The translations under genes and the position numbers were made by a program. Shown piece by piece: positions 3,330-28,914 of a stretch of DNA of 32,000 nt; the first letter of the stretch is position 1; each line of letters opens with the position of its first letter. This stretch comes from Candidatus Peribacter riflensis (GTDB taxonomy: Bacteria; Patescibacteriota; Gracilibacteria; Peribacterales; Peribacteraceae). Where the stretch lies: contig CP013062.1 of assembly GCA_001430755.1 (NCBI GenBank), positions 150,001 through 182,000 on the forward strand. Direction: 5' to 3'. The notes beneath the pieces are model-generated. The model was not told the origin of the DNA. It did no database searches and was given only the letters and a program-made list of their open reading frames with translations.

Positions 3330-4613
3330 ATGCCACCCTTCGACTCTGCCCAGGGTAAACCCTTCGATCCCGCCTTCGCCGATGCTACGGTGGGCAGGCA
3401 GGGTACACCATTCGCAACGGTTCCAGAGGCTCTCGAGGCGTTGAAGGCCGGGCGCATGATCATTGTGGTGGATGACGAGGCGCGCGAGAACGAGGGCGAT
3501 TTGGTGTTCGCGGCAGAGCACATCACCGAAGAGACGATGGCCTTCATCATCCGGCACACCGGCGGAGTTGTCTGTCTCTCACTGAGTAACGCCATCGCCG
3601 ACCGACTCCGGCTCCCGCCGATGGTGAGCGAAAATTCATCCAAGCGTCAGACGCCGTTCACGGTGAGCATCGAAGCGGTGGAAGGAGTGGATACCGGCAT
3701 TTCGGCGCACGACCGCGCGCGCACCGTGCGTGCAGCGATTGATCCGGATGCCCGGCCGTCGGATCTCGCGCGGCCCGGACATGTGTTTCCCCTGCGCGCG
3801 CAGGATGGCGGCGTGCTCGTGCGTGCCGGACACACCGAAGCCGCAGTGGATCTGTGCCGTCTCGCGAATCTCAGAGAGGCCGCTGTCTTGAGCGAACTCA
3901 TGCACGACGACGGCACGATGATGCGTCTGCCGTCTCTGCAGGAATTTTCCGCAGCGCACGGGCTGTCCATCCTCCGCATTGCCGATCTCATCGCGTACCG
4001 CCGTCGCATCGAGACACTGGTTCGCTCCGAGGCCCGCTCTCTCCTCCAGACGGAAACCGGCGAGTGGACCATCCACGTGTACCGCGATCTGCTGCAGAAC
4101 GGGGAGCACGTCGCACTCACGAAAGGCGATGTGAGCGGAGGCGCACCCGTTCTCGTGCGCGTGCACTCCGAGTGCTTCACGGGTGACACGCTCCATTCGC
4201 TCCGCTGTGATTGCGGTCACCAGCTCCACACGGCCATGCAGATGATTCAGGGCGAGGGGCGCGGCATTCTCCTCTACTTAAAGCAGGAGGGGCGCGGCAT
4301 CGGACTCACGAATAAAATTCGCGCCTATCAGATTCAGCAGGAGCAGGGGTTGGACACGGTTGAAGCCAACGAGCAACTCGGATTTGCGCCGGACCTGCGT
4401 GAGTATGGAATCGGCGCGCAGATCCTTCGCGACCTCGGAGCCGGCAACATCCGGCTGCTCACGAATAACCCGCGCAAAATCGTCGGACTCGAGGGGCACG
4501 GTCTCACAGTCGTGGAGCGCATTCCCATCGAGTTGTCGCAAGGAACGCCCGAGCAGCATCGGTACCTCATGACCAAGCAGAAAAAACTCGGACACACGAT
4601 TCACATCGCGTAA
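3330..4613 (+). CDS. ribBA: bifunctional 3,4-dihydroxy-2-butanone-4-phosphate synthase / GTP cyclohydrolase II
   Basis: The N-terminal half has [21 protein letters not shown] and HTEAAVDL, typical of RibB. The C-terminal half has [11 protein letters not shown]...CDCG...[13 protein letters not shown], typical of RibA. Confidence 0.95.
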
Positions 4614-8646: not shown

Positions 8647-10443
<1,797 letters not shown>

Positions 10444-12397: not shown

Positions 12398-12501
12398 TAG
12401 GATTGAATATCCTCTGTTGAATCGCACCGACGAAAAAGCATATTTTTAATTACTGTCTAGAAAGATAGACAAGGTAGTGACTTGGTTCGATTGTTTAGCA
12501 C

Positions 12502-12825
12502 ATGCAAACCACTCAGCAAGAGATCGAAAGAGTACTTGAGAAAGTACAGATTATGTCCCTTCCAGAGAATGAACATATTTTTGATTTACATGTTCATGAA
12601 GAGAATAACATTTGGTTTATTGGCGGATGCGTTGGACCGTATGCGCACACCCTCGCCGACGGACAACCATATCCAGTACTGTGTCCATTACCTGTGTCTG
12701 ATTTAGAATTTACATCGAAAGAGGAAGCACTTGAATTTGCACAAGAGGTACACGATGTTTTGTTCGAGAGGGGGCTGGAACCCGATGCATCTACCTTTCG
12801 CCTTCTTGAAAGACAGTCTGTCTGA
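12502..12825 (+). CDS. hypothetical protein (107 aa), island-encoded
   Basis: This is the only sizeable ORF in this stretch and I recognised no family. A nested hairpin ending in a T-run follows it. Confidence 0.5.
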   Translation: MQTTQQEIERVLEKVQIMSLPENEHIFDLHVHEENNIWFIGGCVGPYAHTLADGQPYPVLCPLPVSDLEFTSKEEALEFAQEVHDVLFERGLEPDASTFRLLERQSV

Positions 12826-12883
12826 AGAAGGTGAGACACAGTTGCGGCAGGAGTAACGGCCAGAGAGGACGTGCTTATTTACC

Positions 12884-12958
12884 GGAAGATGCTTCACGCT
12901 TACGTTTCCGATTTTCAGTGGAGATACAATAATCGGAAGGCTTCACAGCATCTTTTTT
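12884..12958 (+). terminator. nested stem structure ending in T6, a terminator-like element
   Basis: The outer stem pairs AAGATGCT (12886-12893) with AGCATCTT (12947-12954). The inner stem pairs TTCCGATT (12906-12913) with AATCGGAA (12931-12938). TTTT follows. Confidence 0.4.
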
Positions 12959-13020
12959 GATCTGCTCCCTTCACGCGTGTTGTCGCGGCAAGCTCTAGGA
13001 GCTTGAAAAACTGATTACGG

Positions 13021-13416
13021 TTAGTCTTCATGTTTTTCAGGAAGCAGTCCTACTGAATCTCCGCTAAACAGCCAATTTACTACTATATATGCTAGTCCAA
13101 GTACCTTTGCCAAATTTTCAGTAATTAAAAGACCAATAAGCCACTTGGCACCTTCATCTTGTGGCGCAAATACTCCAACTCCAATTAGGGGAATCATTAC
13201 CATGTCGTAAATCACGATAAGAACGATGCACAATAGAATCCAACCAGACCATTTCTTTCTCATTGCGATAATGTCTTGTTTTTCTTGTGCAAGAAGCATC
13301 GCAGTCATCCTTCTATCTTCCAATTGAGAAAAGAGGGTAACGGGTATGGTTGGTGTCATACTTCTTTTTGTACCCAAGAGTTTAAGCGCCTCATTTTTTG
13401 TTGGCAGTGAATTCAT
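13021..13416 (-). CDS. small membrane protein (131 aa, 2-3 predicted TM helices), translationally coupled to the ImmA-like gene
   Basis: Hydrophobic segments WILLCIVLIVIYDMVMIPLIGVGVF and WLIGLLI...LGLAYIVVNWLF. Its ATG at 13416 overlaps the upstream TGA (ATGA overlap). A GTG at 13422 is an alternative start. Confidence 0.7.
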   Translation of the reverse strand: MNSLPTKNEALKLLGTKRSMTPTIPVTLFSQLEDRRMTAMLLAQEKQDIIAMRKKWSGWILLCIVLIVIYDMVMIPLIGVGVFAPQDEGAKWLIGLLITENLAKVLGLAYIVVNWLFSGDSVGLLPEKHED

Positions 13417-13940
13417 ATCCACTTCAGTCTAAATTTGATAACATCAGTGGATACGCCAAATATACCAGCTAAGAGTTCTTGATCTGCGTCGGTCTTATTA
13501 AGACTATATTGCTTCATGATTTTTTTGAGCATATCTAGTGGAACCAATAGACTCGCAGCAAAACAATTCGCCTCCTTCTCTATTGGATTATCTTCTTTTG
13601 GACGTGGATACCTTGGTAAAACTCCATACTCATTTGGTTTATGTCCTAGAATAAAATGACCAAGTTCATGAGCAATAGTAAAAGTTTGTCTATTTGGTGG
13701 GTCTGCACGATTCACAAAAATGATCTTTTGTTCTGGATCAAAGAAGCCAGCAACATCTCTCAATGTTTCTGGAAACTGAAGTACTTTCACAGTTAGGCCA
13801 TGTTTTTCTGCAAGACGGGTAATTGGAATTATTGGTTCCTCAATTTCATACTGCCGCAAAATTTCAGCAGCCTTATCTTTCGCCATATCGTATCGAGGTG
13901 AAAGAATAGCTGTCATATGCGCAAAGAATCTCACATTCAT
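13413..13940 (-). CDS. ImmA/IrrE-family (COG2856) zinc metallopeptidase
   Basis: The HEXXH motif HELGH lies at 13656-13670 in the context FTIAHELGHFILGH. The family-typical EKEANCFAASLLVP lies downstream. Alternative ATG starts are at 13916 and 13886, and the track start at 13961 is TTG. Confidence 0.88.
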   Translation of the reverse strand: MNVRFFAHMTAILSPRYDMAKDKAAEILRQYEIEEPIIPITRLAEKHGLTVKVLQFPETLRDVAGFFDPEQKIIFVNRADPPNRQTFTIAHELGHFILGHKPNEYGVLPRYPRPKEDNPIEKEANCFAASLLVPLDMLKKIMKQYSLNKTDADQELLAGIFGVSTDVIKFRLKWI

Positions 13941-14120
13941 ACAACTAGCACAAACTGACAATCATCTTATTTAGTATGAAAAGTATTGTTTTAGGTGCCA
14001 GTAATGAGTTTATGCAACTGTTGATCCTAGTCATAAAGGGGTAGTTACCTATTTACTTGGGTCCCAGACAGGGTTTTTTGAAGGTTGGGTTTTAGGAATG
14101 GGAGGGCAAGACGGTCGGGA

Positions 14121-15785
14121 TCAAGCAAAACAACCCTTTAGATATTCAATAAAATTAATCGCCTTTAGAAGTATCCGCTCAAACCCTATTTGGTATCCAA
14201 CTTTGTCGATGCCGAATTTCTTTAACAAAGCATCATATTCTTTGCCCTTTTTATGTGCCGCCCCTTTTGATCTTAGCTTCTGCAAATCACGTAGGAAGGA
14301 AATATGCAATTCGGCATCAGCACAGCTTTTTTCAGACATAAAACGAGAAAGCCATGTGATGCTTCCTTGTTTTTCTTTATTAATGTATTGCCGAGAACAG
14401 TGCTTGATCAATTCTTCTATATTGATTGATTCGATCAGGACGTGAGCCAATGACAAAATTTGATTATCAAATTCTGCCTGCGTATTTCGCAGAGGAATGT
14501 GCAGCGAATTTAGATGATGCGCATCCTTCTTCGGTAACTCTCCGAATAATTCCCAGCTGTTCTTCTCCTCCCAATCCTTTCTAAAAATTGAAAACCTATG
14601 TCTGAAAAGGAGGTCCGCTTTTTCTGGCTCTGAAAACTGCGCATAAAAATCTCTTTTCAACGATGTCTTGCTGATTGCTTCACCTGGAACGACATTGTGC
14701 GCAAGCCAATGAGCATGATCTTCAAAAGGAAGATCACGTCCCAGATCACCTAAATAAGCAGAAACATAATTTTTGAGATTGTTATCAATGTACATGCTCC
14801 ACATATGACCACAGGTGAGATGTCCATCGTGAACGGTGTATTTCGGGTCATTATAATACTTTTCCAACACTTCTCGCTTGAAGAACACCCGCGTGAGATA
14901 TTGGGGAGCATCAGGATTGGCACCGAAAAAATTTCCAAGCATATGGTGATTGCATGTGTATGACACAGGATCACCGTTTTCGTCTGTTTTAATTACATAC
15001 TTGGGATATTCTCGCTCCTCTTCCTCATCCTGTTTATAAGGCCAAATTCCGCTTTTCTCTTTGGGTAAACCAGTAAGAATTACTTTTCCGATCATTCTTG
15101 AAAAACTTGCTCGTGTATCCCCTCCGAATTTGTCCCGCCACGTCATACAAGTAAATGAAAACCGAGCACTGTCATTCGTATGTTCAAAGGCGATACGATC
15201 TTCATCGATGCCTAATTCTTCCAGGGTCTTATATGACCATCTGCAAAAAGTAAAACATAGGCACAAAGCCATGTCCTTGATCCCGAGAAATTGCCTAACT
15301 TGTTTCAGATGAGCACCAATGTAATCACCATTCATCTTTACTACATCTTCCAAATCTCCATTGTCTAAGACTTTTTGAAACGTGTTTTTTTGTTCATCAA
15401 AAAATAGATTGTGGTAGAGACGAAACTCCTCATTTAGTTCTTTGTATCCGTCTTTTACACCACCAAAGTCCCTTTCGATAATTAGTGGTTCATAATCATA
15501 AAAACTGCCGAAACGCTTGTACTCGATGGTTCCCCTTTTTCCTTTGGTAAACCCAACACAGCCTGGTTGACCATCTATCGAACAATCATGCCAATCCGAA
15601 CGCTTAAGTTCTTCGGGAATTCGTGAAGTAGGAATCATGCAGCAGTGAAACAAAAGATCATCAACTAGCTGCCTACTCTCCCGTCTTTCTCTTGAGTCAT
15701 GCAAGGTAAGCCATTGCTCTGTGCGCATTTTATTCAATACATACTCACGAAGATCCTCTTGGAGTAACCATGACTTGTCGCTCAT
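14121..15785 (-). CDS. large uncharacterised protein (554 aa) with a C-terminal HEPN-like Rx5H motif
   Basis: Long, clean AT-rich ORF. The C-terminal helical region contains LQKLRSKGAAHKKG, with the R and H codons at 14271-14273 and 14253-14255. His/Cys clusters occur at CNHHMLGNF and VHDGHLTCGHMW. I recognised no family for the first roughly 450 aa. Confidence 0.85.
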   Translation of the reverse strand: MSDKSWLLQEDLREYVLNKMRTEQWLTLHDSRERRESRQLVDDLLFHCCMIPTSRIPEELKRSDWHDCSIDGQPGCVGFTKGKRGTIEYKRFGSFYDYEPLIIERDFGGVKDGYKELNEEFRLYHNLFFDEQKNTFQKVLDNGDLEDVVKMNGDYIGAHLKQVRQFLGIKDMALCLCFTFCRWSYKTLEELGIDEDRIAFEHTNDSARFSFTCMTWRDKFGGDTRASFSRMIGKVILTGLPKEKSGIWPYKQDEEEEREYPKYVIKTDENGDPVSYTCNHHMLGNFFGANPDAPQYLTRVFFKREVLEKYYNDPKYTVHDGHLTCGHMWSMYIDNNLKNYVSAYLGDLGRDLPFEDHAHWLAHNVVPGEAISKTSLKRDFYAQFSEPEKADLLFRHRFSIFRKDWEEKNSWELFGELPKKDAHHLNSLHIPLRNTQAEFDNQILSLAHVLIESINIEELIKHCSRQYINKEKQGSITWLSRFMSEKSCADAELHISFLRDLQKLRSKGAAHKKGKEYDALLKKFGIDKVGYQIGFERILLKAINFIEYLKGCFA

Positions 15786-15791
15786 GTGTCA

Positions 15792-15818
15792 ATTATAGGG
15801 CACATGGGTCACATGCCC
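15792..15818 (-). promoter_or_regulatory. TATAAT box 6 nt upstream of the ATG, plus an adjacent imperfect palindrome (possible operator)
   Basis: The minus strand reads GGGCATGTGACCCATGTGCCC-TATAAT-tgacac-ATG. In the 21-nt palindrome, 7 of 10 positions are Watson-Crick pairs and 1 is a wobble pair. Confidence 0.4.
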
Positions 15819-17384: not shown

Positions 17385-17459
17385 TGGCTGGGGAGGAGGG
17401 ATTCGAACCCCCGAATGCCTGCTCCAGAGGCAGGTGCCTTACCACTTGGCGACTCCCCA
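17385..17459 (-). tRNA. tRNA-Gln (anticodon CTG), CCA encoded
   Basis: The minus strand reads TGGGGAG-TC-GCCAAGTGGTAAGGC-A-CCTGC-CTCTGGA-GCAGG-CATTC-GGGGG-TTCGAAT-CCCTC-CTCCCCA-G-CCA. This is the same architecture as E. coli tRNA-Gln, including the U1-A72 pair. Confidence 0.93.
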
Positions 17460-17526
17460 ACGTGAAACGATGATAGCAGGAATGGGCTCTCGCCCGCCGT
17501 AGTCCCGCGAAGCGGGCGAAGGTGGG

Positions 17527-17537
17527 CTCCCCAACGT
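17527..17537 (-). repeat. 11-nt repeat of the tRNA-Gln 5' junction
   Basis: CTCCCCAACGT at 17527-17537 equals 17453-17463, which comprises tRNA positions 1-7 plus 4 upstream nt. The spacing is 74 nt. Confidence 0.7.
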
Positions 17538-17656
17538 ATGCAGGAGGATAGCAAAGCCTGCTCTGTGTGGAAACGACTCATAGGTTTTTCTTCCCGGCTT
17601 GTTTTCTTCAGAGCTGAGACAGGATCTCTTTCATCCGTTCCCACGCCGCATTCCGC

Positions 17657-17983
17657 TCACAACCCGCACACCTCGGTCATGGGTTCGCAGCTGGCGGCCG
17701 TTGCAATGCAACCGGTCTTCTCGCTCGTCCACTGCGCGCACGCTTCCATGCACGAGTCGCGGCCCTGCTGAAACAGCGTCTCGCCGGCTCCCGGCACCAG
17801 TGTCAGGCACTTGTTCACGTAGTTTTCGCACGCCGCCGCGCAGGTATTGCCTGCCGCAGGCTCGTTGACGCGGATCACCGATCCCGACAGGGCGTCGTTT
17901 TCAACGTCCTGCGGCTGCCCGCCGCATCCTGCCAGCACGAGGCAGGTGAGGAGCAGTGAAGAACATGCCGTGAGTGGTTTCAT
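17657..17983 (-). CDS. Cys-rich lipoprotein (108 aa)
   Basis: MKPLTACSSLLLTCLVLAGC lipobox, with nine further Cys residues in the mature part. I recognised no family. Confidence 0.7.
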   Translation of the reverse strand: MKPLTACSSLLLTCLVLAGCGGQPQDVENDALSGSVIRVNEPAAGNTCAAACENYVNKCLTLVPGAGETLFQQGRDSCMEACAQWTSEKTGCIATAASCEPMTEVCGL

Positions 17984-18037
17984 GGGATTCAAGGGGAAAA
18001 TCCCCGGTACCCTAGCAGACGCTCTCGGCCCGACCAA

Positions 18038-18094
18038 TCATTTTGCCCGTTCGCCCGCGAGCACCGTCGCCGCATCCACCCACCCGTCCAATTC
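18038..18094 (-). pseudogene. orphaned 3' fragment of the M23 peptidase gene (displaced original C-terminus)
   Basis: The minus strand reads ELDGWVDAATVLAGERAK*. Its first 10.7 codons are identical in DNA to the end of the intact gene (18755-18786). An in-frame TAG lies immediately upstream of the fragment. Confidence 0.7.
18063..18094. repeat. 32-bp direct repeat, copy 1 (att-like)
   Basis: ACCGTCGCCGCATCCACCCACCCGTCCAATTC is identical to 18755-18786. Confidence 0.95.
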
Positions 18095-18754
18095 GTTCTA
18101 GAGTGCCTTCAAAAAGGGGATAAGACGCCTTGCGGGAGCTCAAGGAAAAGATATACAATGTGCACGTATCCATACGAATTGGGATCCGAACGGCCCCGTG
18201 CCTAAGGAGCCCTTTTCTTTAAGGTAAATGCAATTTTGGCTTGGATGCCGGGGTTTTCCAGATAATCAAATAATTCCGATCCGAGTTTGCTATACAGAGA
18301 GGAGGCAAATTTTCTATCCGGAAAAAGTAATTTCTTGAACATTCCTTTCTGAATCAGAAAATCAACAACTTTTTTATAATCGCCGTCACCTGAAACAAGG
18401 AGCACCTTATTGAAATCTTTTCTCTCAATGATTGTTTTCATGATTTCAAAAACGATATCGGTATCGACATTGCCTTTCTTGGTGCCTTTCAGGGTGGAGA
18501 TATGTTCTTTGAACAGGACGATGAAGCCTGCCTTTTGCAGATTGCTGTAGAGACTCTGTTGTTCTTCCGAAACGTAACCGAGAAAATAGTAGGCCTCATC
18601 CACCTGATATTTATCCTTCAGATATATCCTGAATTTCGCATGGTCGACCTTCCAGCCGTTCTGCGTAGTGCCGAGGTGTAGGTTTTGCCCGTCAATGAAC
18701 GCAAGATTCGATTCCTTCTCCATGCGGGGATTTTATCACACTGTCACGCCGGGA
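18095..18754. mobile_element. 660-bp AT-rich insertion carrying only an NYN-domain gene, bounded by 32-bp direct repeats
   Basis: Perfect direct repeats flank it. Composition shifts sharply by eye. The target gene's 3' end was replaced and the displaced tail is retained. No recombinase is present. Confidence 0.6.
18202..18723 (-). CDS. NYN-domain (LabA/DUF88-like, PIN-like fold) putative RNase
   Basis: LAFIDGQNL, KGNVDTDI and LLVSGDGDY match the acidic motifs of NYN/LabA domains. TGATAAAAT lies 6 nt upstream of the ATG. Confidence 0.88.
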   Translation of the reverse strand: MEKESNLAFIDGQNLHLGTTQNGWKVDHAKFRIYLKDKYQVDEAYYFLGYVSEEQQSLYSNLQKAGFIVLFKEHISTLKGTKKGNVDTDIVFEIMKTIIERKDFNKVLLVSGDGDYKKVVDFLIQKGMFKKLLFPDRKFASSLYSKLGSELFDYLENPGIQAKIAFTLKKRAP

Positions 18755-19368
18755 ACCGTCGCCGCATCCACCCACCCGTCCAATTCCTCTTTCGTCTGCA
18801 CATAGCCCTCGAGCTCCCTGTCCGCTCCGCGGTGAATGGCAAAGTGCAGGTGCGGGCGTTCGCCATCCGTTTCTGTGCTGAAGCCCGTTCCCAAGACCCC
18901 GATCCGCTCACCAGCGGCAAGTTCCTGCTCAATCTTCGCATCCACGGACGCGAGTGAAAGGTGACCGTAGAGCACCGTGACGGGTGAGCCATTCAGGGTA
19001 CAGCGCTGGATCACCACGCCTCCATATCCCTTCACCCATTGACGATAGATCACTCTGCCGATGCAGGCGGCACGCACGGCTACGTCATGCTCCGTCTCGC
19101 CCGGATTGAGTTCAAAGTCCGTTCCCGTGTGGTAGCCCTTGAACTTCTCCGGCTGCACGGGGGAATCCGCCGGCGTGATGAAGATAGAGAAGGGCTTTTT
19201 GGTCACGCGCTCGTCTGCGCGATCGATGGGGTCGTTCCATATCTTCTGCTCCTCTGTCACGAAAGACTGCGATCCGTCTGAGTCATCCTGAGCGACGGGT
19301 TTCGTCGGGGCGGACTCGCAGGCTGCGAGGAGGAAGCAGAGTCCGAGGAGGGCGAAGCGCAGTCGCAT
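18736..19368 (-). CDS. M23-family (LytM-type) metallopeptidase lipoprotein
   Basis: MRLRFALLGLCFLLAAC lipobox. The HxxxD motif appears as YHTGTDF, together with GYGGVVI and the HxH motif PHLHFAIH. The last 5 codons plus the stop are supplied by the inserted cassette. Confidence 0.9.
   Translation of the reverse strand: MRLRFALLGLCFLLAACESAPTKPVAQDDSDGSQSFVTEEQKIWNDPIDRADERVTKKPFSIFITPADSPVQPEKFKGYHTGTDFELNPGETEHDVAVRAACIGRVIYRQWVKGYGGVVIQRCTLNGSPVTVLYGHLSLASVDAKIEQELAAGERIGVLGTGFSTETDGERPHLHFAIHRGADRELEGYVQTKEELDGWVDAATVPGVTV
18755..18786. repeat. 32-bp direct repeat, copy 2 (inside the 3' end of the M23 peptidase gene)
   Basis: Identical to 18063-18094. Confidence 0.95.
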
Positions 19369-25785: not shown

Positions 25786-28456
<2,671 letters not shown>

Positions 28457-28901
28457 GAATTAGGAATTATGAATTATGAACGAAGCACCCATGCCTATTG
28501 CATCTCCCAGCACCGCGTCGGAAAAAATCAGAGTCTTCACGGATCTGTTTTCCTGGCAGGATGCCCATAAACTTGTTCTCATGATTTACAGAATCACAAG
28601 GAAGTTCCCAAAAGATGAAATGTTCGGATTGGTTGCCCAATTGCGCCGGGCGGTCGTTTCTATCTCATCCAATATCGCTGAGGGATTCAGCAGGATCTCC
28701 TACGCGGAGAAAATTCATTTTTATTCGATCGCTCTCGGATCCGTGACGGAAGTGCAGAATCAGATGCTCATCGCGCGGGATGTCGAGTATGTTGCCCAAG
28801 AAGATTTCATGTCTGTGGAGAAGCAGAGTGTCAAAGTACATAAGCTCATCAACGGCCTGATCAAATCCAGTCGATCATTCTTAATTCCTCATTCCTAATT
28901 C
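28457..28901 (+). mobile_element. IVS-like cassette: four-helix-bundle gene bounded by 24-bp imperfect inverted repeats, inserted between atpD and atpC
   Basis: Left arm GAATTAGGAATTATGAATTATGAA (28457-28480). The reverse complement of the right arm (28878-28901) is GAATTAGGAATGAGGAATTAAGAA, giving 21/24 identity. The arms start 1 nt after the atpD stop and enclose the ORF's start and stop codons. The segment is AT-rich relative to the operon. Confidence 0.5.
28476..28898 (+). CDS. four-helix-bundle protein of the 23S rRNA intervening-sequence protein family
   Basis: FSWQDAHKLVLMIYRITRKFPKDEMFGLVAQLRRAVVSISSNIAEGFSR...ALGSVTEVQNQMLIA matches the family pattern (W-Q-A, FPK.E..GL..Q.RRA..SI..NIAEG). 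Confidence 0.92.
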   Translation: MNEAPMPIASPSTASEKIRVFTDLFSWQDAHKLVLMIYRITRKFPKDEMFGLVAQLRRAVVSISSNIAEGFSRISYAEKIHFYSIALGSVTEVQNQMLIARDVEYVAQEDFMSVEKQSVKVHKLINGLIKSSRSFLIPHS

Positions 28902-28914
28902 ATAATTCTCCAAC

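Follow-up and report, generated by a model that had tools for sequence, protein, structure and literature searches.

How does a small nuclease gene of low GC content come to lie between two identical copies of the end of its neighbor, and what keeps it there? The question is raised by a locus in Candidatus Peribacter riflensis, which belongs to the Peregrinibacteria of the Candidate Phyla Radiation (CPR)/Patescibacteria. In the window that we analyzed, a stretch of 32,000 nucleotides from contig CP013062.1, a gene for an NYN/LabA-like nuclease separates an M23 metallopeptidase gene from a second copy of its 3' end. A preliminary description of this DNA took the arrangement for the site-specific insertion or capture of a minimal single-gene element with an unusually long 32-bp identity at its borders. 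Our results uphold an insertion that entered the 3' end of the M23 gene and pushed its original tail aside, but they do not support a recent capture through a 32-bp attachment (att) site. In Peribacter, the insertion is real but ancient; its descent has been largely vertical, with strong purifying selection. Nor does the cassette look like a single-gene element, since a convergent promoter and a hairpin RNA are predicted opposite the end of the nuclease gene. On balance, we lean toward an account in which an NYN nuclease and its antisense RNA, inserted long ago, form an addictive or defensive module that resembles a type I toxin-antitoxin pair.

The geometry of the locus is well defined. Exactly two copies of the 32-mer ACCGTCGCCGCATCCACCCACCCGTCCAATTC are present, at 18063-18094 and at 18755-18786, and two matches were found in none of 100 shuffles; similarity between the copies widens to 37 nt at 95% (repeat family D2). 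The copy at 18755-18786 is coding. It lies within the M23 gene (18736-19368, minus strand; Pfam Peptidase_M23, E = 1e-14), where it specifies ELDGWVDAATV, and the protein now ends in ...VQTKEELDGWVDAATVPGVTV, that is, with the tail ...ELDGWVDAATVPGVTV, the last five codons (PGVTV*) being supplied by the left edge of the cassette. The copy at 18063-18094 is a non-coding orphan that translates as L*NELDGWVDAATVLAGERAK*. It belongs to the displaced original 3' end of M23 (18038-18094, minus strand), which reads ...ELDGWVDAATVLAGERAK* and is severed from the gene by an in-frame TAG two codons upstream of the repeat. Displaced tails homologous to this one are present at loci L007, L009, L010, and L011 of our comparison set. 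Downstream of M23, the NYN gene begins 12 nt past the stop codon and is followed by a 108-amino-acid open reading frame (ORF). On the minus strand, the NYN start region (18740 to 18721) reads TGTGATAAAAT-CCCCGC-ATG, and the M23 stop codon TGA (18738-18736) falls inside TGTGATAAAAT. Neither the cassette nor the 32-kb window contains a recombinase or transposase gene. The preliminary description had noted the exact repeat, the coding and displaced copies, the overlapping start and stop, and the missing recombinase, and each of these observations was borne out. The insert between the repeat copies measures 660 bp (18095-18754), and the whole repeat unit measures 692 bp. GC content drops to 0.47 in windows covering 18001-18800, versus 0.58 to 0.67 nearby, and the NYN ORF has a GC content of 0.41 to 0.42, versus 0.56 to 0.60 for the locus in close relatives. 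Thus, the insert is AT-rich as described, but it appears to encode more than NYN, with a predicted plus-strand promoter and hairpin RNA at about 18130-18220. The right arm of the insert (18095-18129), between the orphan repeat copy and this promoter, is conserved in alignments solely among cassettes that sit in the M23 context.

The NYN gene (18202-18723, minus strand) encodes a protein of 173 amino acids that matches Pfam NYN (PF01936) at 57.4 bits against a cutoff of 24.2 (E = 3e-15). Across 43 homologues, residues D11, N85, D87, and D113 never vary, and conservation of D89 and D115 is 90% or more; the same active-site columns are conserved in divergent NYN paralogues. An AlphaFold model (predicted local distance difference test [pLDDT], 79; predicted template modeling [pTM] score, 0.78) has as its closest Foldseek matches the structure 2qip (E = 3.5e-7; TM scores, 0.73/0.78) and the NYN domain of MARF1 (TM scores, 0.5 to 0.69). 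By profile, active-site residues, and PIN-like alpha/beta fold, the protein is an NYN/LabA-like nuclease, for which metal-dependent ribonuclease activity is predicted. Its putative promoter is an extended -10 element, TGTGATAAAAT (18730-18740, minus strand), which ends 6 nt before the ATG. Among 78 loci, this -10 element averages 4.9 of 6 consensus matches, carries the TG extension in 76%, and stands 6 to 7 nt from the start codon in 73%, and a Shine-Dalgarno-like motif accompanies only 3 of the 78. With an extended -10 so close to the ATG, the NYN mRNA is probably leaderless, starting near A18723. A PADLOC search for membership in a defense system returned only a weak match to an NYN model, and searches for a phage vehicle gave only four distant matches in IMG/VR and none among PHROGs. 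Variants of the gene occur elsewhere: the NYN ORFs of L065, L079, and L091/L092 carry an insertion of about 23 amino acids with a zinc-ribbon-like CxxC...CxC pattern after the first helix, and the NYN gene of L094, which is labeled Gracilibacteria, has seven in-frame stops under table 11 and may use genetic code 25. The SR1 locus L089 was excluded on the assumption of that code.

Opposite the 3' end of NYN, comparative evidence points to a second gene. When the 3' flanks of NYN from 80 species-level genomes were aligned, about 110 nt were conserved, whether coding or not. On the basis of a covariance model, covariation, and fold, we predict that this segment specifies a cis-antisense small RNA of about 55 nt (18166-18220, plus strand). 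The covariance model, R1, matches the plus strand of the window at 18162-18230 with 68.3 bits (E = 1e-10). The RNA would overlap the NYN stop codon (18202-18204) and about the last six codons of the gene. In its predicted structure, 10 unpaired nt at the 5' end precede a long interrupted hairpin and a U tract (18213-18220). Its predicted promoter (18130-18159, plus strand) consists of a -35 element TTGCGG (18130-18135), an 18-nt spacer, and a -10 element TACAAT (18154-18159), which would place the start of the RNA at G18166. In 73 distinct sequences from 74 anchored loci, this promoter stands at a fixed position. Across this family, the TTGACT-like -35 averages 4.3 of 6 matches, the TATAAT-like -10 averages 5.2 of 6, and the spacer is 16 to 18 nt long. 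A purine stands 7 nt after the -10 in 97% of the family, and a conserved element, (G/A)UAUCAAUACGAAAAGGGAUCCGAAAGGUGUUAGUGCCUUAGGAGCCCUUUUCUUUU, lies downstream of the promoter. The same site scores highest of all promoter-like sites in L033 and ties for the highest in L081.

The predicted fold is likewise a property of the family. Folding z-scores run from -3.8 to -4.3 in typical members, and over 54 sequences 90.6% of the cells in the hairpin alignment are paired, compared to 37 to 66% in slid controls. Eight pairs have changed on both sides, and the observed covariation was matched in none of 500 shuffles. Furthermore, two conserved G-U pairs in succession can form only in the antisense RNA; on the NYN strand, they would be C-A mismatches. 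The covariance model finds the RNA opposite NYN at 80/80 genome loci and 76/76 metagenome loci, so that an intact NYN gene was never seen without it in the 156 loci examined. It also matches beside second NYN copies, and truncated NYN copies keep the RNA. In loci that lack NYN the model found no match. It did find one orphan, at L073 (1542-1661), which comprises an NYN 3' end and an antisense-RNA gene with its promoter but no NYN ORF; the intact cassette of that locus lies 2.9 kb away. Rfam searches of the window and of three other loci gave no match at E <= 1. If this reading is right, the predicted RNA represents a new and very widespread small-RNA family. A pairing between the 5' end of the RNA and the repeat was dismissed as chance, as it amounts to an 8-bp match with two wobbles and is confined to this host.

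Taken together, these elements suggest how the module could work. A leaderless gene for a PIN-like NYN nuclease would be driven by the extended -10 promoter, while a convergent sigma70-type promoter would produce the hairpin RNA of about 55 nt. The 3' end of the NYN mRNA and this RNA would be fully complementary and would share a bidirectional terminator. By pairing with that 3' end, the RNA may restrain expression of NYN, and an addictive or defensive nuclease module of this kind would be retained wherever the cassette lands. The preliminary description had asked whether the nuclease has a partner elsewhere; such a partner is most likely inside the cassette itself, as the cis-antisense RNA. 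Its suggestion of a toxin-like cargo is plausible, and the cassette appears to carry two units. On this account, the 32-bp repeat would be what remains of a duplication of at least 50 nt that was made when the cassette was inserted.

The age of the insertion is documented by the orthologous loci. NYN lies directly after M23 at L105, L007/L015, L009, L096, and L011/L016, where M23 is 69 to 77% identical, and the same junction context is present at L017 and L023/L025. The carriers represent at least six related species, and in them NYN starts 12 to 51 nt past the M23 stop codon. In all of these carriers, the M23 3' end recurs downstream of NYN, in states that range from well preserved to decayed: of the 32 repeat positions, 32 match in this strain, 31 in L009, 28 in L007, 26 in L011, and 20 in L096, and the duplicate of L105 has decayed to a similar degree as that of L096. 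At L016, the duplicate is 49 to 50 nt long and begins farther upstream, at CTATGTGCAGAC, so the ancestral duplication spanned at least 50 nt. Pairwise synonymous divergence (dS) of NYN is 0.23 to 0.83, compared to 0.48 to 1.24 for M23 and the hydrolase gene (ratio, 0.35 to 0.87). For example, between L001 and L011 the values are 0.83 for NYN and 0.96 to 1.05 for the flanks, and between L001 and L007 they are 0.36 and 0.50 to 0.56. The ratio of nonsynonymous to synonymous divergence (dN/dS) of NYN is 0.04 to 0.12 in comparisons with this strain and reaches 0.17 among relatives. The syntenic outgroup L095 (M23 59% identical) is empty, in that M23 is followed directly by a convergent gene and NYN is absent. 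Compared by eye, the tail of this outgroup peptidase (TVITSGGS*) is closer to the displaced tail of L009 (TVLTEEWNK) than to the tail in use. Relatives share the junction and NYN dS is at or somewhat below that of the flanks; on these grounds we rejected a recent insertion and regard the insertion as ancient.

One relative nested among the carriers, L106, has neither NYN nor the downstream lipoprotein gene, and its tRNA-Gln segment is inverted, which together indicate that the cassette was lost secondarily. The inverted segment (L106 940-1215, compared with window positions 17385-18040) ends up 4 nt from the M23 stop codon. A tRNA-Gln gene is found near the cassette in the window and directly downstream of NYN in L096 and L018; the ancestral order may have been M23-NYN-tRNA-Gln.

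How, then, can an old repeat be perfect? Mismatches between the copies are concentrated at the ends of the repeat, in this strain and in L026, which is the pattern expected if gene conversion continues, with the coding copy as its template. The perfect 32 nt is therefore probably the surviving core of an old repeat, converted against a copy that is under selection as coding sequence, rather than an active att site. A long, perfect repeat does not necessarily signal a recent event. Between species, the last 54 nt of M23 are 87 to 98% identical (94 to 98% among four of them), compared to 74 to 82% for M23 bodies and 83 to 96% for NYN, and the orphan copy is 88 to 97% identical among four species, compared to 47 to 80% for the next 40 nt. 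Gene conversion accounts for identity within a genome, but not for such slow divergence of the repeated segment between species, and this segment may have a function at the level of DNA or RNA.

Beyond the close relatives of P. riflensis, the cassette occurs across the Patescibacteria, and its predicted architecture recurs at every NYN locus that we examined. In most of the 80 loci, the GC content of NYN falls short of that of the host locus by about 6 to 15 points, and the neighbors of the gene are not conserved: 130 flanking proteins match 179 Pfam families, from rpoB and aminoacyl-tRNA synthetases to PemK and GIY-YIG. Within Peribacteria, cassettes 86 to 90% identical to that of L016 occupy other loci (L019 and L021). 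When L016/L017 are compared with L019/L021, homology runs from the extended -10 of NYN to just after the -35 of the small RNA, so the unit that moves is a promoter-to-promoter block of about 612 bp, equivalent to 18130-18741 in the window. Some loci contain two NYN copies or a truncated one. A neighbor-joining tree of NYN largely follows taxonomy, which led us to drop rampant horizontal transfer as the cause of its high conservation and suggests that movement has been mostly within lineages.

Flanking repeats accompany the cassette more often than they do other genes. Using local alignment of the sequence upstream versus downstream of NYN, with a greedy set of control genes that excluded ORFs inside repetitive genes, we found direct repeats of 24 to 150 nt at 15 of 70 genome loci versus 20 of 316 control genes (p = 3e-4). 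The result was replicated in metagenomes (6/56 loci versus 3/138 controls; p = 0.018), such that, overall, 11 to 21% of cassettes and 2 to 6% of control genes are repeat-flanked. The repeats are made of different host sequence in each host and vary in length, which argues against a conserved att site, and no conserved sequence or inverted repeats were found at the cassette ends. Many repeats are intergenic. Others often span the final 50 to 130 nt of a host gene together with the stop codon (L026, L035, L118, L165 [ruvB-like], and L065 [histidine kinase]), or a terminator (L071, L079, L089, L108, and L168). The candidates for young insertions are L035, with a perfect repeat of 54 nt, L053 (150 nt), and L118 (126 nt). 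At L065 (3793-7723), five partial copies of the histidine-kinase 3' end, each preceded by a hairpin, separate cassettes for NYN, a Fic protein of 295 amino acids, a small transmembrane protein with MazEF, and a SET-domain protein; thus, the repeat phenomenon is not exclusive to NYN. An array of five intergenic repeats at L071 is similar. The duplications could have arisen by insertion at staggered breaks or by Campbell-type integration of an aberrantly excised circle that carried host sequence; the L065 copies differ in extent, which agrees better with the second route.

Overall, a nuclease gene paired with a convergent RNA in a compact, relocating, low-GC cassette that leaves orphan RNAs behind favors the type I-like module. 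Several points weigh against it. Both promoters and the RNA itself are predictions, the RNA promoter in the window is weak (8/12) and was not called by a simple scanner, and the hairpin in the window is marginally stable (z = -1.8). The hairpin also serves as the terminator of NYN, and this role accounts for part of its conservation without recourse to an RNA gene. Classic type I toxins are small membrane peptides, not nucleases of 173 amino acids, and NYN is 60 to 80% identical across classes, far above typical toxins, with a tree that roughly follows taxonomy; these last properties would also fit a lineage-specific housekeeping RNase. Repeats flank some control genes too, and conservation of the M23 3' end exceeds that of NYN, a difference for which gene conversion by itself does not account.

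The main rival starts from that conservation. NYN may be a lineage-specific RNase that Patescibacteria have conserved, and the convergent RNA may simply act as its regulator or terminator; relocations would then be rare rearrangements, and the repeats would be incidental to illegitimate recombination in small genomes. The low dN/dS, the broad congruence of the tree with taxonomy, the usual presence of one NYN copy per locus, its frequent position beside core genes (rpoB, aminoacyl-tRNA synthetases, and ribosomal protein S20), and the occurrence of flanking repeats at other small genes of the same genomes would all be natural for such an enzyme. Against it, synteny is entirely absent, the GC deficit relative to the host locus recurs across the family, NYN is found in second and in truncated copies and the RNA once as an orphan remnant, the cassette was lost from L106 in the midst of its carriers, repeats flank it at four to five times the control-gene frequency, and toxin cassettes stand alongside it at L065. 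We regard this explanation as credible but doubtful.

Mobility raises the question of whether the cassette moves itself. The NYN/antisense unit might be an autonomous mobile element in which NYN, possibly together with the small RNA, drives its own insertion by nicking DNA at gene 3' ends or terminator hairpins, leaving duplications of 24 to 150 bp without any transposase or recombinase. We consider this improbable.

Recent capture, a fuller form of the explanation given in the preliminary description, would make the insert a minimal integrative cassette with 32-bp att sites and a recombinase acting in trans. It would explain the perfect 32-bp identity and an insertion in a gene 3' end that brings a replacement tail, and the unusual conservation of both repeat copies across four species and the nearby tRNA-Gln gene could be counted in its favor. 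But the junction is common to species whose flanks differ by a dS of up to about 1, the repeat has decayed in L096 and L105, the repeats of other hosts are unrelated, host specific, and variable in length, the cassette ends share no conserved sequence or inverted repeats, and no recombinase lies in the 32-kb window. In P. riflensis, the empty junction would read AAAGAG + 32-mer + GCTCGCGG and the circle junction CTAGAAC + 32-mer + TCCCGG. A search of Joint Genome Institute (JGI) metagenomes with a degenerate 44-mer, which was aimed at the empty junction only, gave no match. Contigs of 785 bp containing NYN were considered as candidate circles and rejected, as L103 is a linear fragment that runs from the M23 end into the cassette. 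Capture of this kind is thus quite unlikely.

A selfish nuclease of the homing type would cut alleles that lack the cassette, and the cassette would then be introduced during repair along with the 3' end of the donor gene; this explanation is very unlikely as well. Free-standing homing endonuclease genes in fungal mitochondria leave C-terminal duplications. Here, a nuclease gene adjoins a duplicate of the end of its host gene, whose original tail has been displaced; at several other cassettes, which also lie at the 3' ends of genes, the repeat includes the stop codon; and the upstream 54 nt are more identical than the gene body. Yet NYN has an RNase-type fold and belongs to no known homing family, about 80 to 90% of loci have no detectable repeat, many repeats are intergenic, and purifying selection with mostly vertical inheritance is unlike the usual cycle of invasion and decay. 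Presence and absence offer a single case, the nested relative L106, whose locus is also rearranged. Finally, the preliminary description had named an assembly artefact as a possible undoing of the insertion, but a chimeric join through the shared 32-mer, which 32 = k-1 for k = 33 might suggest, is excluded: the M23-NYN-108-amino-acid ORF order is identical on at least 23 contigs, some longer than 1 Mb, that were assembled independently from different samples (MEGAHIT k141, JGI, and ANAN16), and diverged relatives have the same arrangement.

If the type I-like module is real, it has implications for a group in which, to our knowledge, almost no regulatory RNAs or toxin-antitoxin biology have been characterized. 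Its RNA would be a small-RNA family absent from Rfam, and RNA and nuclease together would be among the most conserved accessory modules of Patescibacteria. The nuclease would combine control by a cis-antisense RNA with translation of a leaderless mRNA. More generally, recurrent small cassettes with long host-derived duplications at gene 3' ends would point to a route of gene insertion in reduced genomes beyond known transposases or integrases.

The window and its relatives contain other features of interest. A second low-GC island (12400-15800; GC, 0.38 to 0.44 versus about 0.60) is present in all P. riflensis assemblies seen. It encodes an ImmA/IrrE M78 peptidase (13413-13961, minus strand) whose best PADLOC match is CapP, a 133-amino-acid ORF without a Pfam match (13021-13422, minus strand), a 554-amino-acid protein without a family match (14121-15785, minus strand), and a 107-amino-acid ORF (12502-12825, plus strand). 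It looks like a defense or prophage-remnant island; that it shares the mechanism of the NYN cassette was rejected, given that it has no flanking repeats. At 28450-28908, inverted repeats of 34 nt (82% complementary) surround a lower-GC segment of about 420 bp that encodes a '23S rRNA intervening sequence protein' (PF05635, 140 amino acids) between the genes for the beta and epsilon subunits of ATP synthase, another small cassette-like insertion within an operon. Near NYN cassettes elsewhere, L081 of Nomurabacteria has a group I intron (Rfam RF00028, 65.5 bits) some 430 nt downstream (4346-4591, minus strand), and L007 of a Peribacter relative has, some 5.5 kb downstream (9567-10065), an RVT_1 reverse-transcriptase gene that the window lacks.

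Compared to known systems, the cassette matches no mobile element in full. Insertion sequences and transposons are poor models, as there is no transposase, there are no conserved ends, and the duplications are variable and 24 to 150 nt long. Like an att-flanked element, the cassette has direct repeats at its borders (32/32), but neither a nearby integrase nor a constant att core accompanies them. It resembles integron cassettes in being a single-gene, recombinase-less unit followed by an imperfect hairpin. Unlike them, it has no attC-type R and L boxes and no integron integrase, its boundary reads GTTCTAG rather than GTTRRRY, it contains two predicted promoters of its own, and its repeats derive from the host. 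Orphan C-terminal tip arrays of Rhs and contact-dependent inhibition (CDI) toxins, and tandem islands at att repeats, offer another comparison. As in the tip arrays, a displaced gene 3' end lies downstream of inserted DNA, for which the L065 array is the closest case; unlike in them, the host gene is no tip-swapping toxin, the duplicated segments are 24 to 180 nt long, and the inserted units are independent genes. In sequence, fold, and conserved acidic residues, the protein resembles NYN/LabA nucleases (PF01936), including 2qip (VPA0982) and MARF1. It differs from the described members in having a predicted, dedicated antisense RNA and a relocating cassette; the literature that we searched describes neither an NYN/antisense-RNA module nor NYN cassettes in CPR bacteria. 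Type I toxin-antitoxin pairs include some with a convergent antisense RNA that overlaps the 3' end of the toxin gene, such as txpA/RatA and bsrG/SR4 of B. subtilis, and others with nuclease toxins, such as SymE/SymR and RalR/RalA. Our module departs from them in that a soluble 173-amino-acid NYN nuclease, conserved over a phylum-level radiation, takes the place of the small hydrophobic peptide, only SymE and RalR being comparable, and in that its cassette is usually single copy and mostly vertical in descent. What it shares with type I pairs is the predicted architecture: a protein gene and a small antisense RNA gene, the latter with its own promoter and terminator, converge and overlap at their 3' ends in a compact unit with its own two promoters, and this unit is a relocating, low-GC cassette with orphan RNA remnants and toxin-cassette neighbors.

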